Assembly: GCA_030427825.1 (NCBI GenBank)
Contig: JAUICO010000002.1
Location: 25,634-89,633 of the forward strand
Origin: a bacterium
GTDB lineage: Bacteria > Myxococcota_A > Bradymonadia > REDH01
DNA length: 64,000 bases
Direction: 5' to 3'
A model generated the notes under the pieces. That model had not been told where the DNA came from. It worked only from the letters and a program-made list of their open reading frames with translations, and searched no databases. The first letter of the stretch is position 1, and every line of letters begins with the position of its first letter. The position numbers and the translations under genes were made by a program. Positions 778 through 64,000 of this stretch are shown here, in pieces.

Positions 778-822
778 AATTGATTGTGAGCGGAACTCGC
801 GGGAGAAGCGGCCCTGGCACGC

Positions 823-1416: not shown

Positions 1417-1417
1417 G

Positions 1418-8462: not shown

Positions 8463-8573
8463 GTATCCCCCATGATTTCGCGGCCTGAAGTGTGCCGGGA
8501 GCCGCTGGTCACGTCAACGTGCGTGGGCCCATGGCAACCCGGTGGGATCCGAGGGAAGAGTCGTCGCCGGCGC

Positions 8574-9473: not shown

Positions 9474-9528
9474 CAGTACGACTCTGTCGGGCAGACGTCA
9501 GGGTCGTCGACATCGATCGTCAGGCGGC

Positions 9529-10302: not shown

Positions 10303-10316
10303 GCCGGCGGCCATCC

Positions 10317-11402: not shown

Positions 11403-11534
11403 GAATCAACCGGGTCCAAAACAGGGGCCGGAAGCTAACACGACGCCAAAATGGGTGTCAAACTACCGTTAGCGCGTCAAAAACCACGTCCGCCGCCACG
11501 GTCAACAGCTTGCGGAGCTCCCCGACAACGGTTT

Positions 11535-12134: not shown

Positions 12135-12164
12135 CGAAGCTCCGGATCGATGAAGGGCGTCGAA

Positions 12165-12229
12165 ACAGTCAGGCTTGACTGTTGTAGCGGAAAGTGGTTG
12201 GGCGAGTAAACCGTCAGCATTGACGGTTT
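12165..12229. promoter_or_regulatory. Two inverted repeats sharing a GTCA-N4-TGAC core in the divergent tetR/desaturase intergenic region: ACAGTCAggctTGACTGT (12165-12182) and AAACCGTCAgcatTGACGGTTT (12208-12229)
   Basis: Read directly from the sequence. They sit between the divergently transcribed TetR gene (minus) and the fatty-acid hydroxylase gene (plus). The second repeat abuts the RBS of the plus gene. Confidence 0.5.
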
Positions 12230-12253
12230 GTGCCTCGCGCAGGAGTTCTCGCG

Positions 12254-46813: not shown

Positions 46814-46853
46814 ACCGTCGGGCTTGCCCGCCGTCGACGGCTGCGACAAGGCT

Positions 46854-48221
46854 ATGCTGACTATGTCGGACATCACCCGTACAGTTGTTCTCAGAGGCGG
46901 CGCGGAGTCATTGCTCCTGCGGCGCTTCTCACTGACGCCCGCGGGCGGCCGCAGAGCCTCCTTTGACACACGGCGCGTGACCATCGGGTCGAGCCCGGAC
47001 AACGACCTCTCGATCGATGATCCCGGCGTCAGCAGGCACCACTGCCGAATCGAAGTGAGCGCAGACGGCTATCGACTCGTGGACCTGCAGTCGAAGAACG
47101 GGACCTGGATCTCGTCGGTGCGCATTCACGACGCTGTGCTCGCCGATGGCGCTACCTTCAGCGTCGGTGACGCCAGGGTCCGCTTTGACATCGGCGATGA
47201 AGAAGTTGAAATCGGCTTCTCCGGTGACAATCGCTTCGGCTCTCTGCTCGGCCGATCTCTCGTCATGCGCGAATTCTTCGCTCTGCTCGAGAAGGTGGCG
47301 AGCACCGACGCGACGATTCTTATCGAAGGCGAGTCGGGCACCGGCAAGGAAGTCGCCGCCCAGGCCGTTCACGACGCGAGTCGGCGACGCAGCGGCCCCT
47401 TCATCGTCTTCGACTGTTCCGCCGTCTCGGGAGACCTGATCGAGTCCGAGCTCTTCGGCCACGTAAAGGGCGCCTTTACCGGGGCGCATGCGGACCGGGC
47501 GGGCGCCTTCGAAGAGGCAGCCGGCGGCACAATCTTTATCGACGAGCTGGGCGAGCTGGCCACTGAACTGCAGCCGAAGCTGCTTCGCGTGCTCGAAAAG
47601 CGAGAGGTTCGCCGCGTGGGCAGTAACGTGGCCATCCCGGTCGACGTGCGCGTGATTGCCGCGACAAACCGGCGCCTTCGCGAAGAGATGCAGCGCGGCG
47701 ACTTTCGCGAAGACCTGTACTATCGCTTTGCGGTGGTGAAGGCGCGGATTCCGCCGCTGCGCGAGCGTACCGAAGACATCCCGATGCTTGTCGACAACTT
47801 CCTCGCCGAGGTCGCCACGCAGCACGGCTTGAACGACCTGAATGTATCGTACCAGACGATGCAGAAGCTCATCGCGCACCCCTGGCCCGGCAACGTCCGC
47901 GAGCTGCGCAACTTTGTGGAGCGGGCCGCGGTGCTGTCTCAGGACGGCGATGTCGCGACGAACTTTCTGCGCACCGATGCGCCCGCCGCGCCGAAGGCGG
48001 ACGCGGCCGAGGAAGCCGTCTCCTGGATGGAAGCCGCCGGTGTAGACACCGAGACGCCTTTCAAGGAGGCCAAGCATCGCCTGGTTGAAGCCTTTGAAAG
48101 AGCGTATTGGGAGAAGCTGCTCCATAACGCAGACGGCAATGTGTCGCGGGCCGCACGAAAGGCAGGTGTCCATCGCAAGAGTGTGGAGTACATTCTGCGC
48201 AAGCTCGATTTGAAGCGCTGA
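46854..48221 (+). CDS. Sigma-54-dependent transcriptional activator (bEBP) with an N-terminal FHA domain and a C-terminal Fis-type HTH
   Basis: FHA domain (…[28 protein letters not shown]…). AAA+ sigma-54 interaction domain with ESGTGKE Walker A and the GAFTGA loop. C-terminal HTH ([24 protein letters not shown]). Confidence 0.85.
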
Positions 48222-48234
48222 ACAGGGAATCCAG

Positions 48235-49155
48235 ATGCCGGTACATCAGTCCATCACCCACACCGTCGGAAACACGCCGCTGGTCGAACTGCAGCGGGTA
48301 ACCGGCAACGCCGGCGCGAGAGTTCTGGTCAAAGTCGAGTTCTTCAATCCCCTCGCGAGCATCAAGGACCGTATCGGCCTCGCAATGATCGAGGCCGCAG
48401 AGGCAGAGGGTCGTCTTGGCGAAGGCTCGCTGCTCATCGAACCGACCTCTGGGAACACCGGGATTGCGCTGGCCTTCGTGGCGGCCGCGAAGGGATACCG
48501 GCTGATACTCACAATGCCCGACGCCATGAGCATCGAGCGTCGAAAGCTGCTCAAGCATATGGGCGCTGAGGTAGAGCTGACGCCCTGGTCTCTGGGTATG
48601 ATGGGCGCCGTTGATCGCGCGCGAGCCATCGCCAGGGAGCGCACGGATGCCGTGATCCTTCAGCAGTTCGAGAACCCGGCGAACCCGGCCGCACACGAGC
48701 GAACCACCGGGCCGGAGATCTGGACGGATACCGAGGGCAGGGTGGATATCTTCGTCGCCGGAGTCGGAACCGGCGGCACCATCAGCGGTGTCTCACGCTA
48801 CCTGAAGACCAAGAACCCGAACCTTCGCTCCTACGCAGTAGAGCCGGAGACTTCGGCGGTGCTGTCCGGCCGTCCACCCGGTCCCCATCCGATCGAGGGT
48901 ATCGGCGCCGGCTTCATTCCGCGAAACCTGGACATGAGCCTCGTCGATGAGGTCATCACAATGCGCGCCGAACGAGCCTTCGAGATGTCGAGACGCCTGG
49001 CTGTTGAAGAAGGCATCCTCGCAGGCATCTCCAGCGGAGCAAATGTAACCGCAGCGATCGAGCTGGCGAATCGCCCTGAGAATGCCGGCAGGACGATCGT
49101 CACCGTCGTATGCTCCTGCGGCGAACGTTACCTCTCTACGTCGCTCTTCGGGTGA
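48235..49155 (+). CDS. cysK: Cysteine synthase A (O-acetylserine sulfhydrylase)
   Basis: PLP-lysine motif SIKDR and TSGNTGIALAF. 306 aa. Confidence 0.9.
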   Translation: MPVHQSITHTVGNTPLVELQRVTGNAGARVLVKVEFFNPLASIKDRIGLAMIEAAEAEGRLGEGSLLIEPTSGNTGIALAFVAAAKGYRLILTMPDAMSIERRKLLKHMGAEVELTPWSLGMMGAVDRARAIARERTDAVILQQFENPANPAAHERTTGPEIWTDTEGRVDIFVAGVGTGGTISGVSRYLKTKNPNLRSYAVEPETSAVLSGRPPGPHPIEGIGAGFIPRNLDMSLVDEVITMRAERAFEMSRRLAVEEGILAGISSGANVTAAIELANRPENAGRTIVTVVCSCGERYLSTSLFG

Positions 49156-49366
49156 GCGCGTCTCAGGCGGTGATTTTGACCGCAACACGCAAATCCGCGA
49201 CCCTTGGGCCTATGTCGATCGATCTGTTCAGCACCGACTTCTTCAGCGTCAGAGTGTCTGCGTGAAGCCGAATGGAAAATGGAGCCTGCGTACCGCCCTG
49301 AACGGCCTTTTTGGCACGACAGAACGGCGAGGCAGCGAGAGCCGTGTTCGGGTCACACCGCCCGCC

Positions 49367-50092
49367 ATGCATCCTCGGGGCATGAGCGGGATCGTCGAGC
49401 TCGTCCGTGAGGATGTGCGCGCGGTGATGCAGCATGATCCTGCGGCAAGAAATGCGGTCGAAGTGCTGCTTTTCTACCCCGGCTTTCACGCCGTCTGGGG
49501 CCACCGCGTCGCCCACACCATGTGGCGAATGGGGCTCACGACCTCGGCCCGAGCCGTCTCACACGCGAACCGCTTCGTCACCGGAATCGAAATCCACCCC
49601 GGCGCTACCATCGGCCGCAGAGTATTCATTGACCACGGTATGGGCATCGTAATCGGCGAGACTGCGACCGTCGGCGACGACTGTCTGCTGTACAAGGGCG
49701 TCGTGCTGGGCGGAACTTCGCTGGAGCGTCGCGAACGCCATCCCACGCTCGGCTCCGGCGTCGTCGTCGGTACGAACGCATGCGTGCTCGGTGCCATCTA
49801 CCTTGGCGACGGAGCCCGCATCGGCTCCGGCTCCGTCGTGATCCGCGACGTTCCAGAGGGCGCTACCGTCGTCGGTATCCCCGGTCGCGTCGTCGAGATG
49901 GGCGGCATGCGCACCATCGAGCAGCTCGACCACGCCGCCCTCCCGGATCCCGTGGCCAACGCGATATCGTCGCTGCTTGGCGAGATTGAAGACCTGCGCC
50001 GCGAGGTGGCAGCCATTCGCGGCGACGAGCCGCCGCCCAGACGCGCCGGCCGCGACTTCGAACACGAGAGCTTTGACGGTGAGGAGGAGTGA
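49367..50092 (+). CDS. cysE: Serine O-acetyltransferase
   Basis: Hexapeptide-repeat LbH domain and SAT N-terminal helices (…VREDVRAVMQHDPAARN…IHPGATIGRRVFIDHGMGIVIGETA…). The start is trimmed from the track ORF. Confidence 0.85.
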   Translation: MHPRGMSGIVELVREDVRAVMQHDPAARNAVEVLLFYPGFHAVWGHRVAHTMWRMGLTTSARAVSHANRFVTGIEIHPGATIGRRVFIDHGMGIVIGETATVGDDCLLYKGVVLGGTSLERRERHPTLGSGVVVGTNACVLGAIYLGDGARIGSGSVVIRDVPEGATVVGIPGRVVEMGGMRTIEQLDHAALPDPVANAISSLLGEIEDLRREVAAIRGDEPPPRRAGRDFEHESFDGEEE

Positions 50093-50586
50093 GCGGGCTG
50101 CGCGATGATATCACGCACGCTCTCGCTCCCTTCGGAGAGCCCGAGCTCCGACTTCTCGGCGCCTGGCGATCGACTACACGGCTGCCGGGCCTTCGGGAGC
50201 TTCCGATGGTGCACGCAGTCGTCGCGTATCCCGCGCTACGCCTCGCCACGCTGCGTCATTGGCGCGACACCTTCGAGACGACTCTGACCGTCGGCGATGC
50301 GCCGGTACACCTGGTTGCCCACGAGGCCTCAAAGTGGGCGCGGCTGCTGCTCAAGGGCCACGGCGGAAGCCTCCTCATCGCAGGCCTGGAGCCCGTCTTC
50401 GATTCTTCACGGCTGCTGTCGAAGCTCGGCGAGATCGCCGGGTCGTGTGCGAATGCCGACACACGCGAGTGGTGTGAAGCGGCCAATGGACCCGCGCCTG
50501 CCGCGAACACGGTGAGCGCGCAGGCGCGCTTTGACGCGTTGGAGTCCTGGCTGACCGAAGCGCGATGCTTCGCGATCGGCGCCTGA
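50089..50586 (+). CDS. Hypothetical protein
   Basis: 165-aa ORF overlapping the cysE stop (GTGA). It has no recognisable motif. Confidence 0.35.
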   Translation: MSGLRDDITHALAPFGEPELRLLGAWRSTTRLPGLRELPMVHAVVAYPALRLATLRHWRDTFETTLTVGDAPVHLVAHEASKWARLLLKGHGGSLLIAGLEPVFDSSRLLSKLGEIAGSCANADTREWCEAANGPAPAANTVSAQARFDALESWLTEARCFAIGA

Positions 50587-50708: not shown

Positions 50709-53700
50709 ATGACCACCAGATTCGGAAGCTACGGCACCGCTGCGGCCTTTCTCTTTGTCTTTGCTATCGCCGGCGTACTCGGCGCGTGTGATGGCTGTAG
50801 TTCGGACCCCGGTGTCGGTGAGACCTGCGAGATCGATGATGACTGCGCCGACGGCGCTATCTGCGACGACGGGCTTTGTGTGACCGATATCGTGGACGAC
50901 GTCGGGCTCGACACGCCGGACGGCGACGCGGACACGGACCTGGATGCCCCTGAAGAAGTCGACAGCAGCGAAACCGACGGCGAAGACACCGATACCGGTG
51001 AGACCGATGACGGCGGTGACGCCGGCTGCGACGGACAATATCAGTGTGAATGCACGACGGACGACGACTGCGACTCCAGCCTCTGTGTACGCACCGAGCT
51101 GGGCAACCTCTGCTCGCGCCTTTGCTTCGACGACGAAGACTGTGCGGACGACGCATGGGAGTGCCGCCTCCTACGCACCGGCTCCGGCGATGTCGCCGAG
51201 ATCTGCGTGCCGATCGCGGTGGGACTCTGCGCGGATTGTGAGACGGACGAAGACTGCACGGCGAACGGCTCCCTGTGCAATGCCCTCGCGGACGGAAACT
51301 TCTGCACCACCGACTGCACCGACTCCGACTGCCCTGAGGGCTACGGATGCGAAGAGATTACGCGGGTCGAAGACGGCACCCCGGTGAGCTACGATCAATG
51401 CGTGCCGCTTCTCGGTGTGTGCGGCGACTGCCTCGACGTGGACGGCGACGGTTACGGTACCGGTTCCGCCTGCCTGGGCGACGACTGCGACGACACCCTG
51501 ACCTCGGTGTACGTGGACGCGCCTGAGATCTGCGACAACATTGATAACGACTGCGATCTGGAGAACGACGAAGACTACACGGACGCCGACGGGCTCTACA
51601 ATTCGCAACAACACTGCGGTGGCTGCGGTCAGGTGTGCGCCGCTGACTTCGCGACGGTCGAGTGTCAGACTGCGGTCTGCACCCTGCTTGCATGCGACGA
51701 CGGGTACGCAGACTGCAACGATTCGCTGGACGACGGGTGCGAGACTCCGACAGCGAGTGATGAGGCGAACTGCGGTGGCTGCGGCGTCGTGTGCGATTTC
51801 GCGAACGCAAACGGTGTGTGCAACACCGGCGAATGTGCGCTCATCAGCTGTGAAACCGGTTGGGGCAACTGCGACGATAATCAGGCGAACGGCTGCGAAG
51901 AAGACGTCACGGACGACTTCTTCAACTGCGGCGTGTGTGGACAGACCTGCGACCTCGAGAACGCCGTCGCCCTCTGCGACAACTCCGCGTGCAGCCTGAT
52001 CGGCTGCGACTTCGGCTGGCAGGACTGCAACACCAACCTGGACGACGGCTGCGAGGCCTTCGTCGTCGAAGATGTGCTGAACTGCGGTACCTGCGGAAAC
52101 ATCTGCAGCGTAAACAACGCTGTAGCAGGCTGTGACGGCGGCGCGTGCGCCATCGCAGAGTGCCTGCCCGGCTTCGCGGACTGCAACACCAACAACCTGG
52201 ACGGCTGCGAGGTTGATCTCGGCGTCAGCCGCGACAACTGCGGGGCCTGCGGTGACCGCTGCGTCTTCGCGAACGGCGTCGGCGAGTGCGATGAGGGGAC
52301 CTGCGAGCTGGTCGCCTGCAACAACGGCTTCTCAGACTGCGACGGCAACAGCGCAAACGGCTGCGAGGTGGACCTGCGTACCGACAGCGCGAACTGCGGC
52401 GCCTGCACGAACATATGCGACGGCGACAACGCGTCGCTGACCTGCGTCGCCGGCGACTGCGAAATCGCCTCCTGCGATGCCGGCTTCGATGACTGCGACC
52501 TCAACGCAAACAACGGCTGCGAAGTGAACCTCGCGACCAACGTCAACAACTGCGGATCCTGCGGTCTTGTCTGCGCGGTTGGCGGCGGCGCCGCTGCCTG
52601 CGTGAACAATGTGTGCGGAATCAACAGCTGCGATACCGGGCTGGCGGACTGCGACGGTTTGCCCGGCAACGGCTGCGAGACCGATCTGACCACAAGCAAT
52701 CTTCACTGTGGCGCCTGCTTCCAGAACTGCACCTTCCCGAACGGCGTCGGTGACTGCGAATCCGGCGTGTGTGGTCTGGTCGGCTGCAACACGGGCTTCG
52801 CGGACTGCAACGGTGACCCGATCGACGGTTGCGAGATGGACCTTCGAACCAACTACAACAACTGCGGAACCTGCGGAAAGGTATGCGACCTCGCCGACGC
52901 GACCGGAAACTGCAACGCAGGAACATGCGAGGTGATCGGCTGCGATCTCGGCTTTGACGACTGCGATCAGGTCGACTCCAACGGCTGCGAAACCAATCTG
53001 CTCACCAGCACGCAGTCCTGCGGCGTCTGCGGTACCCAGTGTGAGGTCGCCAACGGTGACCCCGTCTGCAACGGCGGCGCCTGCGGTGTCGCGGGTTGCG
53101 ACCTGGGCTACGGAAACTGTGACGGAGGCTACGCCAACGGTTGCGAAGCCGAATTCGCAACCAACGAGCAGCACTGCGGCGGCTGCAACATCGCCTGCGA
53201 GTTTGAGAACGGCGTCGGAGCCTGTGTGGCCGGTGGCTGCCAGCTGGTCGGTTGTGATATCGGCTACGGAGATTGCAATGGCGAAGATTTCGACGGCTGC
53301 GAGGTGGACCTCAGAAGCAGCGTCGATCACTGCAACGCCTGTGGCAACGCGTGTTCAGACAACAACGCTACGCCCCAATGCGACGGGGGTGTGTGTGAGG
53401 TCTTCGATTGTGAAGACGGCTTCGAGGACTGTGACGCGAACCCGGCGAACGGCTGCGAGATCAACCTGAACACCAACGTGTCGAACTGCGGCGGTTGCGG
53501 CGACATCTGCAGCGTCGCCGGTGGCGACCCGGAATGTGTGCAGGGGAGCTGCGAAGTCAGTCTCTGCACCGGAGACCTGGCGAACTGTGACGGTGACCCC
53601 GCGAACGGTTGCGAGATCGACCTCAACGCTGACGAAAACAACTGCGGTGGCTGCGATAATGTGTGCTCCTACCCGAACGGAACGGGTGACTGCGCCGCCG

Positions 53701-56546
53701 GCTCCTGCGTCCTCGCCGGGTGTTCCGCGCCCTTCGCGGACTGCGATTCCGATTCTACGAACGGCTGCGAAGCCAACACCACGTCCGACGACAACAACTG
53801 CTCGTCCTGCGGCAATGTCTGCAATCTGCCGAACGCGACCAGCACGTGCTCGGCGTCAGAGTGCCGCATCGTGAGCTGCAACAGTGGTTTCGCGGATTGT
53901 GACGGAACCGACGCGAACGGCTGCGAAGTCGACCTGAGCGTCAACCGGAACAACTGCGGAAGCTGTGACAACGCATGCAGCGCAAACAACGGTACCGCAT
54001 TCTGCGATGGCGGCAGCTGCGCCATCCAGTCCTGCGACTCCACCCACGGTGACTGCGACGGATCTTACAGCAATGGTTGCGAGGCGCCGCTGAACATCGA
54101 CGAAGCCAACTGTGGTACCTGTGGAACCACCTGCGAATACGAAAACGGAATCGGACTCTGCACCGGCGGCAGCTGCTCGATGAGCGGTTGTCAGAGCAAC
54201 TGGGGCGACTGCGACAGCAGCAACGCCAACGGCTGCGAGACCTTCCTCGTCAACAACATCAACGACTGCGGCACCTGTGGAAACGAGTGCAGCTATCCGA
54301 ACGCCGCCGGCACGTGCAACACCACGTCGTGCGCCCTGCAGAACTGCAATCTGGGCTACGAGAACTGCGATGGCAGCGCCCTCAACGGATGCGAAGTGTT
54401 TGTCTCAGGCGACACAAACAACTGCGGTGGCTGTGGCTCGGTATGCAGCCTCTTTCAGGCCAGCGAGAACTGCACGAATGGATTCTGTGGCGTCGCGAGC
54501 TGCAACGGCGGGTTCGACAACTGCAACGGAATCCCGAGCGATGGCTGCGAGATCAACCTCAACTCTGACGTCAATAACTGCGGCAGCTGCGGAAACGTCT
54601 GCCCCTCCGCGGGTGGCACCGCGGTCTGCAACAACGGCACCTGCGGCATCTCCGGTTGCACCGCACCCCTCGCTGACTGTGACCTCGACGGCACATCGTG
54701 TGAGACAAATACCAACAACAGCGTCTCGAACTGCGGCAATTGCGGCAACGATTGCGACGCCGGCGCATCCAACGCGACGATGGAATGTGACTCGGGTGTT
54801 TGCGACATCGACCAGTGCGACACAGGTTTCGACGACTGCAACACTGTGACTTCGGATGGCTGCGAAACCAACATCACCAGTTCTCTGGCCCACTGCGGAG
54901 GATGCGGAAATGTGTGCTCTATCGGCGGCGCTGTCGAAGAATGCAGCAGCGCAACGTGCAGCTTTGTTACCTGTGACAGCGATCGTTACGACCTCGATGG
55001 CGACATGAACGACGGCTATCAGGGTGGCGACAACGGCTGTGAGTACTTCTGCACCGGTGACCCCCTGGCAACGGACTCGCCGGACTCCAACGGCACGGAC
55101 GACAACTGCGACGGCATCGACGGCGACATCGCCAACTCGATCTTCGTCGCGCGCAGCACAAACGGCGGCAGCAACTCGCACCCCGGAACTCCGGAGCAAC
55201 CGGTCGCCACCATCGCGTTCGCGATCAACGCCGCTGCGAGCTGCCCGGGCGGACCCTGCGACGTCATCGTCTCCGGCGGTACCTACGACGAGTCGATTAC
55301 AATGATTGACGGCGTGAACCTCTACGGCGGCTTTGACGCCGGCACCTGGACTCGCGACATCTCGATCAACGAGACCATCATTCGGGGCCAGTCGACCGTG
55401 GCTGTCACCGCAGACGCACTCACCACGGCGACCACACTCGACGGCTTCACCGTGCAGGGATTCGACGCCCCAGGTAGCAGCGGAGGCGCGACGATCGCTG
55501 TTCTCGTCAGCGACAGCAGCAGCAACTTCTCCATCGGCAACTGCACGATCGAAGGCGGTACCGGCGGGGACGGCGCGGATGGTGAAGACGGCACGAACGG
55601 CGCCAGCGGTCTCGCCGGTGGCTCCAGTAACAGCTCCAGCGGCGCCGCCGGTGCGACGAGCACCTGCGGTGCAGACGGCGGCGACGGCGCCAGCGGACGG
55701 GCGTGCACGGACGGCGCGCAGTCCGGCGGATCCGGCGACGCAGGCAGCGACGCCAGCAGCGGCGGCGGCGGCGGCAGCGCCGGATCAAACAGCTGCTCCT
55801 GCAGCGGCTTCTCAGGCGGTGATGGTGGCGACGGTGGCGCGGCAACGGCGGGCGGCAATGGCGCTCAGGGCGGCGCGGGCTCGAGCTCTTCGCTCTCGGC
55901 GGGCTCCTGGGTCGGCGGCGTCTGGACGCCGAGCACATCGGGCCCGGGCACTCGCGGTAAGAATGGTACCGGCGGTGGCGGTGGCGGCAGCGGCGGATCC
56001 GATCGTGACGGTCTCTTCGGCGGCTGCATCAACGCACGTACCGGCGGCGGTGGCGGCGGCGGTGGCGCCGGCGGATGTGCAGGCACAGCCGGCGGCGGCG
56101 GCACGCAGGGCGGCGCATCGTTCGCGGTGGTTGTCGTCAACTCCGTCGTCGACATCACGGATACAGAGATCAAGGTAGGTACCGGCGGCGACGGCGGTGC
56201 CGGCGGCCCCGGCGGCGATGGCGGTGCCAGCGGCGGTCTCGGCGCAGGCGCCGGCGGCTCAGGCGGCGGCTTCCTCAGCGAAGGCGCCGGCGATGGTGGC
56301 AACGGTGCAGCGGGTGGCAAAGGCGGCGGCGGTGGCGGCGGTGCCGGCGGCTGCGGTGGTCCCGCGATCGGCATTGCGCAGGTTGATGGCGGCACAGCGA
56401 ACCAGACCGCGGTGAGTTTCAGCGGCGGCACCGGCGGTGCGGTCGGCAGTGGCGGCCCCGGCGGCAGTCTCGGTGGCGACGGCGCAAACGCACCCTCGGG
56501 TGCGGACGGCTGCGTAGGCGCGGTCGAGGACACCTATACCTACTGA
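50709..56546 (+). CDS. Giant (~1,945 aa) secreted lipoprotein with several modules, listed in order. (1) An acidic linker. (2) A Cys-rich head containing a MopE-like putative metal-binding motif. (3) About 22 tandem 52-residue 8-Cys modules. (4) A beta-helix-like region. (5) A ~300-residue poly-Gly (GGxGG) tail.
   Basis: Uninterrupted 1993-codon ORF. The start is trimmed to MTTRFGS… with signal peptide plus lipobox (VLGAC). The repeated consensus is [NH]CGxCGxxC-x5-8-C-x3-4-C-x4-C-x2-GFxDCDxxxxNGCE-x-[DN]L. DVDGDGYGTGSACLGDDCDDT…EICDNIDNDCD matches the Cu-binding MopE-type motif known from Myxococcus. Confidence 0.8.
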   Translation: MTTRFGSYGTAAAFLFVFAIAGVLGACDGCSSDPGVGETCEIDDDCADGAICDDGLCVTDIVDDVGLDTPDGDADTDLDAPEEVDSSETDGEDTDTGETDDGGDAGCDGQYQCECTTDDDCDSSLCVRTELGNLCSRLCFDDEDCADDAWECRLLRTGSGDVAEICVPIAVGLCADCETDEDCTANGSLCNALADGNFCTTDCTDSDCPEGYGCEEITRVEDGTPVSYDQCVPLLGVCGDCLDVDGDGYGTGSACLGDDCDDTLTSVYVDAPEICDNIDNDCDLENDEDYTDADGLYNSQQHCGGCGQVCAADFATVECQTAVCTLLACDDGYADCNDSLDDGCETPTASDEANCGGCGVVCDFANANGVCNTGECALISCETGWGNCDDNQANGCEEDVTDDFFNCGVCGQTCDLENAVALCDNSACSLIGCDFGWQDCNTNLDDGCEAFVVEDVLNCGTCGNICSVNNAVAGCDGGACAIAECLPGFADCNTNNLDGCEVDLGVSRDNCGACGDRCVFANGVGECDEGTCELVACNNGFSDCDGNSANGCEVDLRTDSANCGACTNICDGDNASLTCVAGDCEIASCDAGFDDCDLNANNGCEVNLATNVNNCGSCGLVCAVGGGAAACVNNVCGINSCDTGLADCDGLPGNGCETDLTTSNLHCGACFQNCTFPNGVGDCESGVCGLVGCNTGFADCNGDPIDGCEMDLRTNYNNCGTCGKVCDLADATGNCNAGTCEVIGCDLGFDDCDQVDSNGCETNLLTSTQSCGVCGTQCEVANGDPVCNGGACGVAGCDLGYGNCDGGYANGCEAEFATNEQHCGGCNIACEFENGVGACVAGGCQLVGCDIGYGDCNGEDFDGCEVDLRSSVDHCNACGNACSDNNATPQCDGGVCEVFDCEDGFEDCDANPANGCEINLNTNVSNCGGCGDICSVAGGDPECVQGSCEVSLCTGDLANCDGDPANGCEIDLNADENNCGGCDNVCSYPNGTGDCAAGSCVLAGCSAPFADCDSDSTNGCEANTTSDDNNCSSCGNVCNLPNATSTCSASECRIVSCNSGFADCDGTDANGCEVDLSVNRNNCGSCDNACSANNGTAFCDGGSCAIQSCDSTHGDCDGSYSNGCEAPLNIDEANCGTCGTTCEYENGIGLCTGGSCSMSGCQSNWGDCDSSNANGCETFLVNNINDCGTCGNECSYPNAAGTCNTTSCALQNCNLGYENCDGSALNGCEVFVSGDTNNCGGCGSVCSLFQASENCTNGFCGVASCNGGFDNCNGIPSDGCEINLNSDVNNCGSCGNVCPSAGGTAVCNNGTCGISGCTAPLADCDLDGTSCETNTNNSVSNCGNCGNDCDAGASNATMECDSGVCDIDQCDTGFDDCNTVTSDGCETNITSSLAHCGGCGNVCSIGGAVEECSSATCSFVTCDSDRYDLDGDMNDGYQGGDNGCEYFCTGDPLATDSPDSNGTDDNCDGIDGDIANSIFVARSTNGGSNSHPGTPEQPVATIAFAINAAASCPGGPCDVIVSGGTYDESITMIDGVNLYGGFDAGTWTRDISINETIIRGQSTVAVTADALTTATTLDGFTVQGFDAPGSSGGATIAVLVSDSSSNFSIGNCTIEGGTGGDGADGEDGTNGASGLAGGSSNSSSGAAGATSTCGADGGDGASGRACTDGAQSGGSGDAGSDASSGGGGGSAGSNSCSCSGFSGGDGGDGGAATAGGNGAQGGAGSSSSLSAGSWVGGVWTPSTSGPGTRGKNGTGGGGGGSGGSDRDGLFGGCINARTGGGGGGGGAGGCAGTAGGGGTQGGASFAVVVVNSVVDITDTEIKVGTGGDGGAGGPGGDGGASGGLGAGAGGSGGGFLSEGAGDGGNGAAGGKGGGGGGGAGGCGGPAIGIAQVDGGTANQTAVSFSGGTGGAVGSGGPGGSLGGDGANAPSGADGCVGAVEDTYTY
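51610..55045. repeat. Coding tandem repeat array: about 22 copies of a ~156-bp unit (the 52-aa 8-Cys module) inside the giant gene
   Basis: The protein pattern recurs every ~52 residues (NCGGCG…NGCE). The copies have diverged at the DNA level but keep the same period. Confidence 0.7.
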
Positions 56547-56619
56547 TGCAGGCACAAGGAGCCGCGCGGGAAATCGCCGGCTTCCCTGGACTCCCGGCGA
56601 AGATGGGCGCTACCCTCGC

Positions 56620-58635
56620 TTGATGCACCCTACGTGTATCAAAGCAGGCGCGCTCATTGTCGCCCTCATGCTGCCAGCGTGCGAGGGCGGGGACGCCGGC
56701 GCAGGGGACACGGGTGCGGATTCTGGTCTTGCGTCCCCGGACGCGCTGGACCCGCTCGACCCGACGGCCGGTGGCGGATCGTTGCGTGTTGATTCGATTT
56801 CGCCGGGTACATCATCCGATGGCGCCGAGCTCAGCCATGCATCGGAAACGCCCGGGCGCACTGACGGCCCGGTGGAACGGATCTTTGAGCAGGTGGATGC
56901 CGGACCGCTCGGGCAGCATGCGTTGCCTCTGCGGGATGCCGACGTACTTGGCTATGGAAACGGTGGCGCATTCATCGACGCAGACGGGGACGGCGACGAT
57001 GATCTCTTTCTCGGCAGCCCCTGCGACGCTGCCCCGGTCGCCTGTGTGTACCGAAACGACTCGACACCGGGCACGATCCAGTTTGTCCGCCACGAACCCT
57101 GGTGCTTTGACACGTTGCCGATCACAACAGCAGGTGTCGCTGCGGACCTCGACGGCGACGGGCGCGAGGAGCTGATCCTCGGCGGTATCGGAACGGCGGC
57201 GATCGTCGACTTCACATCATCAGAGCCTGAGGTTGTGGACCTGCCACCGGGCCCGTTCTTTCAGGCTGACGAGGTGTGCGCCGTCGGTTCGATCCTCCCG
57301 TGGGACGCGGATCTGGACGGCGACTTCGAGCTTCTCTTCGGCTGCCGTTTCAGCTGGACGGACGGCGGTTGCAGGGGAATCGGTGTTCAGGGTTACTCCA
57401 CCGGTCGCAACGTGGTCCTGGACCGGGTTGATGGCGCATGGACCCCGAGCAGCGGCGCCGAAGTGGACCCCCTCCTGATCGCCGACAACACTCTGGCGAT
57501 CGCGGCGATCGACGCGAACCGCGACGGCGTGATCGACCCTGCGCTCGTCAGCGACACCTTCTCAAGTGTCTCCCGCATCAACACACATTTTCCGCCCGGC
57601 GGGGTGTTCATCTCGGATGTCGGCGCGGCTGATGGGCGCCGCGCGGGACTGCTCGGCTGGGGGCGCGGCAGCGACCGGTGGGGCTCGTTCATGGGGATTG
57701 CGCAAGTCGCCGATGACGCCTGGTTTCTGACGGACTGGGGACGAAACCGCGTGGCGCGCTGGTCCCGGGCAGAGCAACGCTTCCTGCAGGACGCGGCAGA
57801 TCCCGCGCTGAACCGGCAGCCGGACACCGATGACCCTGCCTTCACCTGGGGCGCTGTTGCGGACGATCTCAACGGCGACGGCTTCACCGATCTTGTGGTC
57901 GCCCGGGGAGAACTGCCGGCCATCGCTTCAGACACCTGGCCGACCCACAACGATTTTGTCCTGCTTGGCGCGGAGCCCGGCACCGATGGTGCGATGCGTT
58001 TCCTGGACGCCGGCGAATACAGCGGCTTCGACGGTCGCGCGAGCGCCGATGCCATGGGCCGAAGCGTGGCGAAGGTTGATCTTGATGGCGACGGCGGACT
58101 CGATCTGGTCTTCATTCCCTTTGTTGGAGCGCCCACGGTCTGGTCGTCGCGCGGTGCACAGAAATTCTGCACGATTGAAGTGCGCTCCCGCTACGTGGCC
58201 GCCGCCGGATACGGGGTCGCGATGCGACGAGTCGGCAGCTCGGTCTGGAACGTTCGGGACATTCAGGGCCTCCACGGTTTCGGGGGATCTGTACGAATCC
58301 TCGCCCCTGCAGATATCGCTGCGCTGCGCTTCCCTTCGGGCGCCGAGATGGCGGTAGAGTGCGACCCCGGCGAGCGGCTGACGGTGGAGGAACCGGAGTG
58401 GCTCAGGGTACAACACGCGGGCAACCTCTGGGAGGTACGGATCGCTCAGGACGCGGTCACAGCTCCTGAAGTGGATGGCGCGTGGCAGCGAGTCGGCGCC
58501 GAGGTCTTCTGGACAGAGGGAACCCGTGTCAGCCCTACGCTGGTGCGAATAGCGGCGCTCCCCGCCGGCGAATTCCTCGTCGTTGGGACTCGCGATCGCG
58601 TCGTCGCACTCCGCTGGTTCGCGCCTGCGGAGTGA
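56620..58635 (+). CDS. FG-GAP (integrin-alpha beta-propeller) repeat lipoprotein or secreted protein
   Basis: Signal peptide with Cys (LMLPAC). Repeated Ca-binding-like loops are DADGDGDDDL, DLDGDGREEL, DADLDGDFEL, DANRDGVID, DLNGDGFTDL and DLDGDGGLDL. Confidence 0.65.
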   Translation: MMHPTCIKAGALIVALMLPACEGGDAGAGDTGADSGLASPDALDPLDPTAGGGSLRVDSISPGTSSDGAELSHASETPGRTDGPVERIFEQVDAGPLGQHALPLRDADVLGYGNGGAFIDADGDGDDDLFLGSPCDAAPVACVYRNDSTPGTIQFVRHEPWCFDTLPITTAGVAADLDGDGREELILGGIGTAAIVDFTSSEPEVVDLPPGPFFQADEVCAVGSILPWDADLDGDFELLFGCRFSWTDGGCRGIGVQGYSTGRNVVLDRVDGAWTPSSGAEVDPLLIADNTLAIAAIDANRDGVIDPALVSDTFSSVSRINTHFPPGGVFISDVGAADGRRAGLLGWGRGSDRWGSFMGIAQVADDAWFLTDWGRNRVARWSRAEQRFLQDAADPALNRQPDTDDPAFTWGAVADDLNGDGFTDLVVARGELPAIASDTWPTHNDFVLLGAEPGTDGAMRFLDAGEYSGFDGRASADAMGRSVAKVDLDGDGGLDLVFIPFVGAPTVWSSRGAQKFCTIEVRSRYVAAAGYGVAMRRVGSSVWNVRDIQGLHGFGGSVRILAPADIAALRFPSGAEMAVECDPGERLTVEEPEWLRVQHAGNLWEVRIAQDAVTAPEVDGAWQRVGAEVFWTEGTRVSPTLVRIAALPAGEFLVVGTRDRVVALRWFAPAE

Positions 58636-58695
58636 AAGGCGGCGACGCATCTGACCACAGCGACCGCCGGACTGGGGTTCACATGCAATGCAGGC

Positions 58696-58701
58696 TATAA
58701 T
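58696..58701 (+). promoter_or_regulatory. Perfect TATAAT -10-like hexamer 45 bp upstream of the second giant gene
   Basis: Read directly from the sequence. The GGAGGA RBS is at 58737-58742 and the ATG at 58746. An AT hexamer is rare in this GC context. Confidence 0.4.
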
Positions 58702-58745
58702 ACCGCGAACGGGGCCCGCTGACATCAGCACAAATCGGAGGACGA

Positions 58746-61700
58746 ATGGCAGCTCTCAACGCCATAACGCGCTCAACAGTTCTGTTTATTTCCCTCTCGA
58801 CGCTGTCACTGGCGATGCTTCCGGGGTGCGGAGGCTGTGGCGACGACGCCCCGGGTGAGACAACCTGTGAGCTGGCCTCGGATTGCGGGATCGGAAGCAG
58901 CTGCATCGATGGGATCTGCGTGGTGGCTGACGCCTCTGTGGATGCGGACACCGACGTGGAAGGAGACATCGAAACCGATACCGATATTGATGTCGTCGAT
59001 GATGAAGACATCCTTGATGAAGACACCGGGACCTGCGCGCCGGGCGCATACCAGTGCGACTGCGAGCTGGACATCGACTGCGACTCCGGCACCTGTATCT
59101 CGACGAGCATCGGCGACGTCTGTTCGCGCCCCTGCTCGGAAGATGCCGATTGCGCGGACCCCGACTGGGAATGCCGCCTCCTTCAGACTTCGGGCGGCGA
59201 TGTCGCAGAGCTCTGCGTTCCGGCCAGAACCGAACTCTGCAACCCCTGCGAGGTGGACATCGACTGCGACGGCTTCAACACGCTGTGTACGGTGCTCGGA
59301 GACGGAAGTTTCTGCACCACGGACTGCTCTGCGACAGCCACGTGTCCCGAAGGATTCTCCTGCGAGACGGTCAGCCGCGTAGAGGGCGGCGAGCCGGTCA
59401 ACTACCAGCAGTGTGAGCCGGTGCTTGGGATCTGCGGCGACTGCCTGGACGAGGACGGTGACGGATTCGGAACCGGCTCCGGCTGCGCCGGCCCGGACTG
59501 CGATGACACCCTCGATACGGTCTACGACGGAGCCCCCGAGATCTGCGACGGCTTCGACAACGACTGTGACAACAGCACAGATGAAGACTTTGTGCTGGAA
59601 ACGAGCCTCGTTCACTGTGGCACCTGCGGAAACGCCTGCGACGCCGCCGACGCCACCTCCGAGTGCGTCTCCGGCGCCTGTGCCATCGTCAGCTGCGCGG
59701 AGGGCCTCGGCGACTGCGACCTTGAGTATGCAAACGGATGCGAGTCGAACACGAACACAGACGCGCAGAACTGCGGTACCTGCGGCGAGGCCTGCGAATA
59801 TGCGAACGGCGTTGGCGCCTGCAACGCCGGGGCCTGCGAGCTGGCCGGGTGCACGCAGGGCTTCTCAGACTGCGACGGCGACCCGACGAACGGATGTGAG
59901 GTCGAATCTGCGAGCGACGACAACAACTGCGGCGGCTGCGGAAATGTATGCTCAGATGCCGGCGGCGAGACGGAATGCACCAACGGCGTATGTACACTGA
60001 CGAACTGCGACGAAGGCTTTGCAGACTGTGACGCGATCGCGTCCAACGGCTGTGAAGTCAGCACCGACGTCAACGCATTGAACTGCGGTGTCTGTGGAAA
60101 CATCTGTACCGCGGACAACGGCAACCCGGTGTGCGTGGACGGAATCTGCGGCGTCGACGATTGTGACAGCGGGTTCGCCGATTGTGACAGCGACCCTTCA
60201 AACGGTTGCGAAGCGGTGCTTGACTCAAGCATCGTCAACTGCGGCGCCTGTGCTCTTGCGTGTACCTACCCGAACGGCATCGCGACCTGCGAGCAGGGAA
60301 CCTGTGCGCTTGCGGGCTGCAACAACGGCTACGCCGACTGCGACGGTGACCCGACCAACGGCTGCGAAGTGAGCCTGACGGACGACGAGGACAACTGCTC
60401 CGCATGCGGCAGCGCGTGCTCGCAGAACAACGCGAACACGGAGTGCGTCAACGCCGAGTGCACGATCATGGACTGCAGCGGTGGCTACGCAGACTGCAAC
60501 TCGTTGGCTGTAGATGGCTGCGAGATTGAGACGGATTCAAACATCAACAACTGCGGCACCTGTCTGCAGGTGTGCACCGCCCCGAACGGCGTTCCGATCT
60601 GCGATGGAGGGACCTGCGAGATCGGTGCCTGCGACCCGGGTTTCGTGAACTGCGACGGCAACCTCGCGACCGGGTGCGAGACAAACGTTACCACCGAGCT
60701 CGCCAACTGCGGCGCCTGCGGTGCCGTGTGCGAGTTTGACAATGGTGTTCCCGCCTGCAACGCGGGTACCTGCGCGCTGGCGGCCTGCAACGTAGGCTTC
60801 GCGGACTGTGATGGTGACCCGACCAACGGCTGCGAGGTTGACCTCAACGCGGACACCGCCAATTGCGGCACCTGCGACACCGTGTGTGTTGAAACCAACG
60901 GCGTCGCTGCCTGCACCGCCGGCGTCTGCGAGATCACCGGCTGCGATGCAAACTTCGCCAACTGCGACGGCGTGGCGCAGAACGGCTGTGAAGTGAACCT
61001 GCTGTCCGACGTCGAGAACTGCGCCGCGTGCGATACGGAATGTGTCGGAGACGGAACCGGTGATCCGGCGTGCCTCAACGGCGTGTGTGGTTTGGACAAC
61101 TGCGACGACGGGCTTGCCGACTGCGACGGAGACGGAACCACCTGTGAGATCAACCTCACGACCGACGCGAACAACTGCGGTAGCTGCTCAAACGTGTGCA
61201 GCTACGCAAACGGCAGCGGCGCGTGTGTGGGTGGAAGCTGCGAGCTGGTCGCCTGCGACGCCGGCTTCGATGACTGCGATGCCGACCCGAGCAACGGCTG
61301 CGAGACCTCGCTGGAAAACAACAACTTTGCGTGCGGTGCCTGCGGTCAGAACTGCGACATCGAAAACGGATTCGCCCTCTGCAACGGGACCAGCTGCTCA
61401 CTGCTTGGCTGCGATTTCGGCTGGCAGGATTGCGATGGAAACATCGACAATGGCTGCGAGGTCAATGTACTCGACAGCGTCACCAGCTGTGGCGGCTGCG
61501 GCAATGTGTGCAATGTAGCGAACGCGAACGCCACCTGCGCCGGCGGCGTGTGCGGAGTCGGGAGCTGCTTCGCAGGGTTCGACGATTGCGACCTGCTGCC
61601 GACGAACGGTTGTGAAACGAACCTGTCGGAGAACGACACGAACTGCGGCGTGTGCGGAAACTCGTGCACCTACCCTCAGGGCGCAGGTGAGTGTCTGGAC

Positions 61701-64000
61701 GGCACATGCGCGCTTGTCGGCTGCGCGAGTGGCTTCGCCGACTGCAATGATGTGCCTTCGGACGGCTGCGAAGTTGCTCTTGCGGGCGACTTCTTCAACT
61801 GCGGCAGCTGCGGCAACGACTGCGACGTCTCACAGGCATCGGCAGTGTGTCAGGCGGGCAGCTGCGACATCACCTTCTGTGATTTCGGCTTCCAGGACTG
61901 CAACGGTGCCGTGAGCGACGGCTGCGAGGTCAGCATCCTCGACAGCGAGATCCACTGCGGCGGCTGCGACAACCTGTGTCAGGTAAACAACGGCGACTCA
62001 GTCTGCGACGGCGGAATCTGCGAGGTGGATGCGTGTGACGGCGGCTTCGCCGACTGCAACGACGAGTACGACGACGGCTGCGAGATCGATCTACTCAACA
62101 ATAACAACAACTGTGGTGCCTGCGGAGTCGCCTGCGTGTTCCCGAACGGGGTGGGCGAATGCAACAGCGGCACCTGCGAGCTGGTGGGATGTACCGGCGG
62201 GTTCGCGGACTGCGACGGTCTGGCAACCAATGGATGCGAGACCGATCTCAACAGCGACGAGACCGCTTGCGGCAGCTGTACGACGGCCTGTTCAACGAAC
62301 AACTCCACCCCCAGCTGCAGCGCCGGTGTTTGCGAGATAGACAGCTGCGACTCCAACTTTGCCGACTGCAACAATACGGCCGCTGACGGATGCGAGATCA
62401 ATCTGCTGAGCGACGTGGCGAACTGCAATGGCTGCGGCTCTGTATGTACGGTTCCCAGCGGCACGCCGGTGTGCATCGGCGGCATCTGCGACGTGGACAA
62501 CTGCACCAGTCCCTTCGGGGACTGTGACGGAAGCAGCGCCAACGGCTGCGAGATCAACCTCAGCAACGACGCCGCAAACTGCGGCAGCTGTGGCAGCGCC
62601 TGTACCTACGCAAACGGAATCGGCTCCTGCGCCGGCGGCACCTGCTCACTGGCGAGCTGTACCGGTGGATTCGCGGACTGTGACAGCAACCAGGCGAACG
62701 GCTGCGAAGTCGACACCACAACAAACTTCTTCAACTGCGGAGGCTGTGGATTGGACTGCGACCTCAGCAACGCAAGCTCAACGTGTAGCGCGGGAAACTG
62801 CGGAATCACATCCTGTGACTTCGGGTTCGAAGACTGTGATTCCAGCGCGTCCAACGGCTGTGAGCAGAATGTCGCATCGAACGTGAACAGCTGCGGCGGC
62901 TGCGACACTGTGTGTCAGGTCGACAACGGCGACCCTTCATGTAGCGCCGGCGTCTGTGACATCGGAAGCTGCGATTCCGGCTTCGAAGATTGCGATAGCG
63001 ACTATGGCACCGGCTGCGAGATCAACCTGCAGTCCGACGACGACAACTGTGGTGCGTGTGGCAACAGCTGCGACTTCAACAACGGCGTTGGAGCCTGTGT
63101 CGGCGGCTCCTGTGAGCTTGTAGGCTGCGCGCCGGGGTTCGGAGACTGCGACGGTGACGACACCAACGGCTGCGAGATCAATCTCAACAGCAACCCGGAC
63201 TTCTGCGGCACATGTACGTCGGCCTGCTCGGACAACAACGCGACGCCCATCTGCACCGTCGGTGTGTGTGGAATCGACAGCTGCGATACCGGCTGGGATG
63301 ATTGCAACGGTTCCGCAGCTGACGGCTGCGAAGTGAACCTGCAGGCGGACATCAACAACTGCGGCACGTGCAGTGCGCAGTGCTCCATCGCCGGCGGAGC
63401 CGCGGCCTGCATCAACGGCAGCTGCGGGATCAACGAGTGCGACACGGGCTTTGCGGACTGCGACGGCAACGCGGCAAACGGTTGCGAGACCAACCTGAAC
63501 ACCAGCCTCGACCACTGCGGCGCCTGCAACAATGACTGTGACTATGCAAACGGCGTCGCCAGCTGTGGTAGCGGTGTGTGTCAGCTCTCCGGGTGCAATA
63601 CCGGCTTCGCAAACTGCGACGGCAACGACATCAACGGCTGCGAGAACGACCTGTCAAACAACTTCCTGAACTGCGGAACCTGCGGCAACGAATGTGACCT
63701 CAACCACGCGAATGCAGTGTGCAGCGCGGGCGCGTGTCAGGTTACAGGTTGTGACCCCGGCTACTTCGACTGCAACGGCCAGTCGGGAGATGGTTGCGAG
63801 ATCAACCTTCGTGATGACGAAGTGAACTGCGGTACCTGCGGGACTGTGTGCGCTGTCGCCAACGGAAGTCCGACCTGCAACAACTTCACCTGCGAAGTGG
63901 ACACCTGCGGCATCGGCTTCGACGACTGTGACAATGACTACAGCAACGGCTGCGAATCTGTTCTCGCCACGGATGTTAACGATTGCGGCAGCTGCGGCAA
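58746..64000 (+). CDS. Second giant Cys-rich repeat protein, paralogous to 50709..56546; 3' end beyond the window (>1,750 aa)
   Basis: Not listed in the ORF track because no stop occurs in the window. I translated manually from the ATG at 58746. The translation shows a signal peptide with LPGC, an acidic linker, a Cys-rich head with a MopE-like motif (CLDEDGDGFGTGSGCAGPDCDDT…EICDGFDNDCD), then continuous 8-Cys modules (HCGTCGNAC…NGCE…) to the window edge. Confidence 0.8.
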   Translation, partial: MAALNAITRSTVLFISLSTLSLAMLPGCGGCGDDAPGETTCELASDCGIGSSCIDGICVVADASVDADTDVEGDIETDTDIDVVDDEDILDEDTGTCAPGAYQCDCELDIDCDSGTCISTSIGDVCSRPCSEDADCADPDWECRLLQTSGGDVAELCVPARTELCNPCEVDIDCDGFNTLCTVLGDGSFCTTDCSATATCPEGFSCETVSRVEGGEPVNYQQCEPVLGICGDCLDEDGDGFGTGSGCAGPDCDDTLDTVYDGAPEICDGFDNDCDNSTDEDFVLETSLVHCGTCGNACDAADATSECVSGACAIVSCAEGLGDCDLEYANGCESNTNTDAQNCGTCGEACEYANGVGACNAGACELAGCTQGFSDCDGDPTNGCEVESASDDNNCGGCGNVCSDAGGETECTNGVCTLTNCDEGFADCDAIASNGCEVSTDVNALNCGVCGNICTADNGNPVCVDGICGVDDCDSGFADCDSDPSNGCEAVLDSSIVNCGACALACTYPNGIATCEQGTCALAGCNNGYADCDGDPTNGCEVSLTDDEDNCSACGSACSQNNANTECVNAECTIMDCSGGYADCNSLAVDGCEIETDSNINNCGTCLQVCTAPNGVPICDGGTCEIGACDPGFVNCDGNLATGCETNVTTELANCGACGAVCEFDNGVPACNAGTCALAACNVGFADCDGDPTNGCEVDLNADTANCGTCDTVCVETNGVAACTAGVCEITGCDANFANCDGVAQNGCEVNLLSDVENCAACDTECVGDGTGDPACLNGVCGLDNCDDGLADCDGDGTTCEINLTTDANNCGSCSNVCSYANGSGACVGGSCELVACDAGFDDCDADPSNGCETSLENNNFACGACGQNCDIENGFALCNGTSCSLLGCDFGWQDCDGNIDNGCEVNVLDSVTSCGGCGNVCNVANANATCAGGVCGVGSCFAGFDDCDLLPTNGCETNLSENDTNCGVCGNSCTYPQGAGECLDGTCALVGCASGFADCNDVPSDGCEVALAGDFFNCGSCGNDCDVSQASAVCQAGSCDITFCDFGFQDCNGAVSDGCEVSILDSEIHCGGCDNLCQVNNGDSVCDGGICEVDACDGGFADCNDEYDDGCEIDLLNNNNNCGACGVACVFPNGVGECNSGTCELVGCTGGFADCDGLATNGCETDLNSDETACGSCTTACSTNNSTPSCSAGVCEIDSCDSNFADCNNTAADGCEINLLSDVANCNGCGSVCTVPSGTPVCIGGICDVDNCTSPFGDCDGSSANGCEINLSNDAANCGSCGSACTYANGIGSCAGGTCSLASCTGGFADCDSNQANGCEVDTTTNFFNCGGCGLDCDLSNASSTCSAGNCGITSCDFGFEDCDSSASNGCEQNVASNVNSCGGCDTVCQVDNGDPSCSAGVCDIGSCDSGFEDCDSDYGTGCEINLQSDDDNCGACGNSCDFNNGVGACVGGSCELVGCAPGFGDCDGDDTNGCEINLNSNPDFCGTCTSACSDNNATPICTVGVCGIDSCDTGWDDCNGSAADGCEVNLQADINNCGTCSAQCSIAGGAAACINGSCGINECDTGFADCDGNAANGCETNLNTSLDHCGACNNDCDYANGVASCGSGVCQLSGCNTGFANCDGNDINGCENDLSNNFLNCGTCGNECDLNHANAVCSAGACQVTGCDPGYFDCNGQSGDGCEINLRDDEVNCGTCGTVCAVANGSPTCNNFTCEVDTCGIGFDDCDNDYSNGCESVLATDVNDCGSCG

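Follow-up and report, generated by a model that had tools for sequence, protein, structure and literature searches.

The question raised by the locus described here is what kind of proteins are encoded by two very large, cysteine-rich genes of a bacterium of the Bradymonadia, and whether they act together with the FG-GAP repeat lipoprotein encoded between them. The window, i.e. the whole stretch of DNA that was analysed, comprises 64,000 nucleotides of contig JAUICO010000002.1 (assembly GCA_030427825.1). Its segment from position 50709 to 64000 contains three genes, all on the + strand, which code for giant lipoprotein 1 (g1), the FG-GAP lipoprotein and giant lipoprotein 2 (g2). The reading favoured in this work, with a probability of roughly 60%, is that g1 and g2 are lipid-anchored envelope proteins whose arrays of 52-residue modules act as long polyanionic stalks, stapled by disulfides, for the display of a distal domain, in the case of g1 a beta-helix.

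The g1 gene (positions 50709 to 56546, + strand) was defined from its open reading frame (ORF) and translation; it encodes 1945 amino acids including 219 cysteines, and the product is identical to public protein P0001. The g2 gene (58746 to 64000, + strand) is cut by the end of the window, its frame being open to position 63998, and encodes at least 1751 amino acids with 257 cysteines in the visible part. As criterion for a lipoprotein, a basic residue near the N-terminus, a hydrophobic stretch and a lipobox of the type [LVI]-x-[GAS]-C were looked for in the translations. A putative signal peptidase II lipobox of this pattern is present in g1, g2 and the FG-GAP protein. The N-terminus of g1, MTTRFGSYGTAAAFLFVFAIAGVLGA-C, ends in the lipobox VLGA-C with Cys27 (50709 to 50789, + strand); that of g2 ends in MLPG-C with Cys28 (58746 to 58829, + strand). 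The Pro at lipobox position -2, found in g2 (MLPG-C, with the Cys after 27 residues) and in the FG-GAP protein (MLPA-C, Cys20), is atypical. The lipobox Cys is followed by Asp in g1 and by Gly in g2.

Downstream of the lipobox, g1 consists of a short hairpin with four cysteines, a spacer rich in Asp, Glu and Thr, a Cys-rich head (residues 106-301; 51024 to 51611, + strand) and the modules. The same spacer and head (residues 96-289; 59031 to 59612, + strand) precede the modules in g2. The heads were delimited by their similarity to each other and to the public proteins P0002, P0012 and P0015; that of g1 is 66% identical to P0002 and 39-42% identical to P0012 and P0015. Over residues 10-291, which include the head, g1 and g2 share 50.5% identity (E 2e-78) and are therefore paralogues, as had been proposed in an earlier, sequence-only reading of this DNA. 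One copy of a putative metal-binding motif of the MopE type (Pfam PF11617, Cu-binding_MopE) lies within each head, outside the modules: at residues 259-288 in g1 (51483 to 51572, + strand; 30.0 bits, E 6e-7) and at residues 251-280 in g2 (59496-59585, + strand; 36.5 bits, E 5.6e-9). The cut-off of 27 bits was passed only by an isolated 52-residue piece, and whole-protein scans of g1 and g2 gave no match to this family. The remainder of the heads had no match in Pfam, NCBIfam or the PDB.

Both giants are extremely acidic. Asp and Glu amount to 307 residues in g1 as against 25 Lys and Arg, and to 299 as against 6 in the visible 1751 residues of g2; the net charge is near -280 to -290, and 11-15% of all residues are Cys. 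The lipoboxes, the acidic spacer, the MopE-type motif and the FG-GAP assignment had all been called correctly in the sequence-only reading. Its statement that both giants share one architecture holds for lipobox, spacer, head and 52-residue modules with eight cysteines, g2 being comparable only up to the end of the window. Its estimate of about 400 cysteines per protein was too high, with counts of 219 in g1, at least 257 in g2 and 344 in P0002, a relative collinear with g2.

The arrays were delimited by a regular expression for cysteine spacing and by a module hidden Markov model (HMM). That of g1 (51612 to 55046, + strand) contains 22 modules of eight cysteines each, 19 of which follow one another at a spacing of exactly 52 residues while the last three are variant. 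That of g2 (59613 to 63998, + strand) runs past the end of the window with at least 28 modules, and all 28 visible ones are spaced by exactly 52 residues. The consensus of the module is NCGxCGxxCxxxNGxxxCxxGxCxxxxCxxGFxDCDGxxxNGCExxL, with cysteines at positions 2, 5, 9, 18, 23, 28, 35 and 43, and within the window the module HMM matched g1 and g2 only. Modules are about 42% identical among themselves. A weak super-repeat of period 3 is superimposed, module identity being about 0.45 at lags of 3, 6, 9 and 12 and about 0.40 otherwise. A loop of the type [YF]-x-N-G-[VI]-G occurs in every third module of g2.

Conservation was assessed in 3,971 modules from 274 proteins. All eight cysteines are retained in 89% of these modules. 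Further conserved positions are (i) Glu44 (99%) and Gly42 (98%); (ii) Asp or Asn at position 34 (95%), position 36 (94%) and position 41 (89%); and (iii) an aromatic residue at position 32 (88%), a pattern that fits a structural domain. Most of the modules that apparently lack the seventh Cys are explained by a variant module in which the Cys of the DCD motif is replaced (C..D.YD..G....GCEY.C) and which is followed by a MopE-like CDG-x-DxDCDG. In g1 this variant is module 22 (residues 1395-1446), with which the array closes; in P0012 and P0015 it is scattered among the other modules. Positions 13-15 of the module often read N-[AG]-[TS] and thus resemble a sequon (N in 57%, T or S in 53% of the modules). 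Co-loss of cysteines across the same modules gave no disulfide pairing; the most frequent variants have the appearance of alignment shifts.

Mis-assembly is a well-known risk where a metagenome-type assembly contains long repeat arrays, and g1 and g2 might thus be pseudogenes or artefacts of a repetitive region. This is highly improbable. The reading frames are uninterrupted over 5.8 kb in g1 and at least 5.25 kb in g2, the modules have diverged to about 42% identity at the protein level, Tandem Repeats Finder detected no DNA-level tandem repeat over the arrays, and homologues number in the thousands. In addition, P0002 (2444 amino acids), which stems from an independent read set and assembly, is 59% identical to g2 and collinear with it over 1765 residues; the modules have therefore been conserved in order and not homogenised. 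On the basis of the intact frames, the diverged modules and the independent collinear relative, an assembly artefact was rejected, and the existence of giant paralogous module lipoproteins was confirmed, with chance likewise argued against.

In agreement with the earlier claim that the module fits no Pfam family, Pfam scans of the whole giants and of pieces (the latter to E ≤ 10) gave no match to it. Sequence searches of the PDB with a three-module piece and with a profile of 61 sequences yielded nothing meaningful, the sole match being at chance level (E 0.7). The only Cys-rich NCBIfam family reported was NF041328 ("MXAN_6577-like cysteine-rich protein"; cut-off 100 bits), which scored 130.5 bits on g2, 61.6 bits on g1 and 165 bits on P0002. 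As a three-module piece scores no higher than 30.1 bits, g2 passes the cut-off by summing 11-18 weak matches. No other curated model recognises the modules; NF041328 is named after a locus tag and carries no functional information. Its 145 positions cover about 2.5 modules, so that its architecture is not comparable to that of g1 (1945 residues) and g2 (at least 1751 residues), which possess extra heads and, in g1, a beta-helix tail. A literature search found no mention of MXAN_6577. Likewise, a search for the CGxCG motif returned nothing on the module, and its sole match was the stalk pattern of an amoebozoan integrin beta, a different repeat.

A three-module profile retrieved 12,572 proteins at E ≤ 1e-3, 7,521 at E ≤ 1e-10 and 2,945 at E ≤ 1e-30, counted as representatives of 50%-identity clusters. 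Matches to g1 came from Polyangiaceae, Polyangiales, Bradymonadia, Chondromyces crocatus and many metagenomes. The giants belong to a repeat family that is abundant and catalogued, yet uncharacterised. The description of the module as unusual could consequently not be upheld, given this number of representatives and the fact that NF041328 already picks up the module, if weakly.

Structure prediction of three modules with AlphaFold2 (alignment A1) resulted in a confident model (predicted local distance difference test, pLDDT, 96.2; predicted TM score, pTM, 0.76) with one main beta-hairpin and short additional elements per module. Comparison of this model with the PDB by Foldseek gave no match at E ≤ 0.001. 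The best match was Notch EGF11-13 (E 0.16, TM score 0.43), and the weak, non-significant fold likeness was limited to tandems of epidermal growth factor (EGF) domains in Notch, NELL1 and fibrillin; no integrin beta or integrin EGF (I-EGF) structure was among the fold matches. The predicted module fold therefore has no solved relative, and its likeness to EGF concerns the general form only. Of the disulfide-stapled beta-hairpin envisaged in the sequence-only reading, the hairpin was thus recovered in a confident model, while the four disulfides per module stay inferred.

Like EGF and calcium-binding EGF (cbEGF) domains of Notch, fibrillin and NELL1, and like I-EGF domains, the modules would be small, disulfide-rich beta-hairpin units arranged head to tail, and their cluster of Asp, Asn and Glu residues is reminiscent of the calcium sites of cbEGF. 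However, EGF domains have six cysteines in about 40 residues, whereas the module has eight in 52 residues with a different spacing. Membership in the EGF, cbEGF and I-EGF families was rejected, as there was neither a Pfam EGF match nor a significant fold match, which bears out the earlier distinction of the module from EGF. Membership in the Stig1 and CPL1-like families was rejected as well: neither the two giants nor module pieces matched them at E ≤ 10, and only some relatives match, namely P0007 and P0044 (Stig1, PF04885) and P0008 (CPL1-like, PF21671). The Stig1 stretch of P0007 (residues 897-944) is a simpler Cys-rich segment outside the canonical 52-residue modules.

All eight cysteines of a module may be engaged in four disulfides. 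A quite different use of the cysteines is conceivable, in that they could, together with the MopE-type motif and the acidity of the proteins, bind or buffer Cu, Zn, Cd or other ions in the manner of an extracellular metallothionein-type sponge. The high Cys content and the strongly negative charge would suit such a function, as would the PF11617 motif in both heads and the cysK-like and cysE-like genes located directly upstream. It is nevertheless unlikely. The MopE motif occurs once in about 2,000 residues and outside the modules, and the cysK/cysE neighbourhood is absent beside relatives. Within the modules, the fixed spacing, the even number of cysteines and the conserved Gly and aromatic residues are typical of exported disulfide domains, and each module is confidently predicted to be a beta-hairpin domain. 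Furthermore, peptidases and numerous other secreted proteins contain this array as a linker. The sequence evidence thus points, if indirectly, to module cysteines that are disulfide-bonded rather than present as metal thiolates. A metal-binding role of the modules, as the sequence-only reading had contemplated, is favoured by none of the tests made, and a structural stalk is suggested instead by the recurrent placement of the array, with an anchor on one side and various enzyme or binding domains on the other.

This position recurs in many relatives. Module arrays are fused to (i) S8 peptidase, CUB and PKD domains; (ii) M14 peptidase domains; (iii) choice-of-anchor-D Ig domains; and (iv) LamG, fibrinogen-C, RHS/YD, RCC1 and FG-GAP domains. 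P0029, an S8 peptidase, and P0095, an M14 peptidase, have the enzyme at the N-terminus, followed by the array and, at the very C-terminus, a MYXO-CTERM sorting tag (TIGR03901; 20.9 and 22.7 bits, respectively, cut-off 20). The polarity is reversed in g1, g2, P0002, P0012 and P0015, in which the order is N-terminal lipobox, head, array and C-terminal domain. Among 218 apparently complete proteins with at least five modules, the other sequence around the array has a median length of about 228 residues on the N-terminal and 183 on the C-terminal side. For an element that is invariably placed between an anchor and a working domain of changing type, the simplest role is that of a spacer or stalk.

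An architecture like that of the giants has been proposed before for surface proteins of myxobacteria. A role as stalk has been suggested for the Cys-rich repeats of TraA from Myxococcus xanthus, which differ from the module (PMC3325183). TraA resembles g1 and g2 in being a myxobacterial envelope protein whose Cys-rich tandem array separates a recognition domain from the signal for membrane attachment, and the relatives P0029 and P0095 use MYXO-CTERM in the same way. It differs in its repeat unit and in having a PA14 domain, which the giants lack; in addition, the giants are anchored by an N-terminal lipobox, i.e. with reversed polarity, and their arrays are much longer. No repeats of the TraA type (TIGR04201) or CDDGN type were reported in NCBIfam scans (E ≤ 0.1 for whole proteins, E ≤ 10 for one- and three-module pieces), the release used containing TIGR-numbered models such as TIGR03901 but the presence of these two models in it being unconfirmed, and both candidates were dismissed. 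The earlier distinction of the module from the classical CDDGN-type repeat stands to the extent of these scans.

The array of g1 is followed by a C-terminal domain of 499 residues that is not composed of repeats (55047 to 56543, + strand) and that was absent from the sequence-only reading. It has 1,112 homologues, many of which are stand-alone proteins of 500-870 residues annotated as hypothetical or "MopE-related"; the family is large and mostly unannotated. AlphaFold2 (alignment A2) predicted the domain with a pLDDT of 93.4 and a pTM of 0.87. It belongs to the right-handed beta-helices of the pectin-lyase fold, as concluded from its match in fold to beta-helices of solved structure and from the HMM of DUF1565 (PF07602), which scored just above its cut-off on the first 163 residues. 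Long GGxGGxGG stretches of the domain are confident in the model and have no regular secondary structure according to DSSP. P0012 shares the tail (39.6% identity over 371 residues); in P0015, a BLAST match to the g1 tail was not obtained, and the same Gly-rich C-terminal sequence was recognised by eye.

The pectin-lyase fold is common to polysaccharide-active enzymes, adhesins and phage tailspikes. Proteins to which the g1 tail can be likened are those with DUF1565, pectin methylesterase, Pel9A, the adhesin PfbA, autotransporter passengers and phage tailspikes. It differs from them in that about a third of its 499 residues aligns and the remainder is very rich in Gly. The beta-helix of g1 may bind or cut a glycan.

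Taken together, these data suggest that an N-terminal lipid would anchor g1 and g2 in the cell envelope, where both would be surface-exposed. The module array would be an elongated, strongly negative stalk of disulfide-stapled modules that keeps the distal C-terminal domain far from the membrane; this domain would be the pectin-lyase-fold beta-helix in g1, while the distal end of g2 lies beyond the window and can be judged only by analogy with P0002. By analogy with EGF tandems, the array could be a rigid rod with a length of about 3 nm per module. The cluster [DN]34-C-[DN]36...[ND]41-G-C-E44 might bind Ca2+ and thereby stiffen this rod.

Several points weigh against this stalk model. Disulfide pairing, rod geometry, the Ca2+ site and surface exposure all rest on inference. 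The Asp (g1) or Gly (g2) that follows the lipobox Cys may, in this lineage, leave room for retention in the inner membrane. No catalytic residues were identified in the beta-helix, and only about 180 of the 499 residues of the g1 tail align to solved beta-helices. Finally, the conserved head beside the anchor could be the functional part and the array something other than a spacer.

A related possibility is that the giants are cleaved off or shed on vesicles and serve as polyanionic, Ca2+-cross-linked components of an extracellular matrix or of fibrils. Their extreme acidity, the near absence of Lys and Arg (6 in 1751 residues of g2) and the weak fold likeness of the modules to EGF tandems of fibrillin and Notch are compatible with this idea, and it deserves a small share of credence. 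However, the lipobox is conserved in g1, g2, P0002, P0012 and P0015, which argues for membrane attachment, and no self-association domain was identified. It also overlaps with the stalk model in that the same rod is assumed, with another final location.

The FG-GAP lipoprotein (56623 to 58635, + strand; 670 amino acids, lipobox LPA-C, Cys20) is identical to public protein P0243. Its assignment is based on Pfam FG-GAP_3 (PF13517; 52.6 bits, E 7e-14, cut-off 26.9 bits) and FG-GAP (PF01839; 31.3 bits, E 1.9e-7, cut-off 22.1 bits), with scores above both cut-offs, and the protein is a putative beta-propeller. In integrins, the alpha subunit carries an FG-GAP propeller and the beta subunit an I-EGF stalk with eight cysteines per domain. 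By this parallel, the propeller lipoprotein and the two stalk proteins could form one receptor of an integrin-like adhesion system, and the adjacency of the three genes on one strand, the lipobox in all three products and two relatives, P0018 and P0027, in which a module array is fused to C-terminal FG-GAP repeats in one polypeptide, would accord with this. Such fusions indicate that FG-GAP propellers can be displayed on the putative module stalk.

The genomic context speaks against a dedicated three-gene system. The neighbourhoods of P0002, P0012 and P0015 contain neither an FG-GAP gene nor a second giant; on the contig of P0002, the upstream gene is a different one whose product has no similarity to the FG-GAP protein. 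Only 12 homologues of the FG-GAP protein were found among 5.8 billion proteins. The nearest ones (about 33% identity) are set among unrelated genes and have no Cys-repeat neighbours. When species-representative genomes were scanned with the FG-GAP protein, a single, unrelated locus of Melioribacter came up, and no genome close enough for a fine-scale comparison of synteny. The local protein matches the propeller of P0018 at the level of the generic repeat motif only (E 0.002). As to the stalk side of the parallel, no integrin beta or I-EGF structure was among the fold matches, and neither an EGF nor an integrin match was obtained in Pfam; the amoebozoan integrin paper documents only a Cys-rich stalk motif of the beta subunit. 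An integrin-like receptor built from the three products is therefore improbable, and the giant/FG-GAP/giant arrangement, absent around the nearest relatives of either protein, does not support the dedicated system that the sequence-only reading had considered. The FG-GAP lipoprotein is probably a neighbour in the same envelope compartment and not an obligatory partner. In the vicinity of P0015, a g1-like protein from a metagenome-assembled genome of the Myxococcales, the giant gene follows a MoxR, DUF58, VWA, BatA, BatD operon (L003, 1-9855, upstream of P0015), and downstream of it are genes for a 548-residue protein of unassigned family and an Rce1-like protease; no link to the locus in the window was found.

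Module-rich genes were also found at 1-2594 (- strand) and 6001-12795 (+ strand) of a 110,728-bp contig from ENA (ctg27207). They encode P0011 (2435 amino acids) and P0009 (2264 amino acids), the latter containing poly-Asn tracts. The contig has a GC content of 25-37%, and the module genes adjoin a RING-finger gene. The contig looks eukaryotic, possibly amoebozoan or dictyostelid-like, which suggests that Myxococcota and amoeba-like eukaryotes have the module in common. At its most far-reaching, the module would be a structurally new, Ca2+-stiffened rod domain from which thousands of proteins of the Myxococcota build surface stalks of some 60-100 nm. It would also occur in amoeba-like eukaryotes and would here be paired with an FG-GAP propeller in integrin-like fashion. 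This combined proposal is distinctly improbable.

Irrespective of this, the module ranks among the more abundant of those extracellular building blocks of Myxococcota that have never been studied, with no Pfam entry, solved structure or paper in spite of its 12,572 representatives, and a good target for structural biology. Should it prove to be a rigid spacer that is stapled by disulfides and perhaps dependent on Ca2+, giant proteins now called "hypothetical" could be annotated by the thousand as anchor-stalk-effector proteins. Bacteria would then have an equivalent of the EGF tandem arrays of eukaryotes, and engineering would gain a modular scaffold of great stability. The locus itself adds little beyond the module, as its three-gene arrangement is not conserved.

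Translation of g1 was taken to start at the ATG at position 50709, which is preceded at a distance of 6 nt by AGGGG. The longest ORF begins at 50565, and the public annotation P0001 begins 18 codons upstream of 50709. The FG-GAP gene starts with the ATG at 56623 (alternatively with a TTG at 56620) and g2 with the ATG at 58746.

Directly upstream of g1 and on the same strand are a cysteine-synthase-like gene (48235-49155, + strand; Pfam PALP, E 1e-73) and a serine-acetyltransferase-like gene (49082-50092, + strand; Hexapep and SATase_N). Both steps of cysteine synthesis thus precede genes whose products consist of 11-15% Cys. This cysK/cysE pairing was not found beside the relatives P0012 and P0015, and a functional coupling was rejected for this reason; the proximity to the giants may be a coincidence. 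An ORF for 165 amino acids (50089-50586, + strand) starts with a GTG within the last 4 nt of the cysE-like gene and had no Pfam match; it may be a genuine small gene or, the DNA being rich in GC, a frame that is open by chance. Further upstream, a gene at 46716-48221 (+ strand) encodes a sigma-54 activator (Sigma54_activat, E 1e-65) with an N-terminal FHA domain (E 9e-18), a combination typical of Myxococcota.

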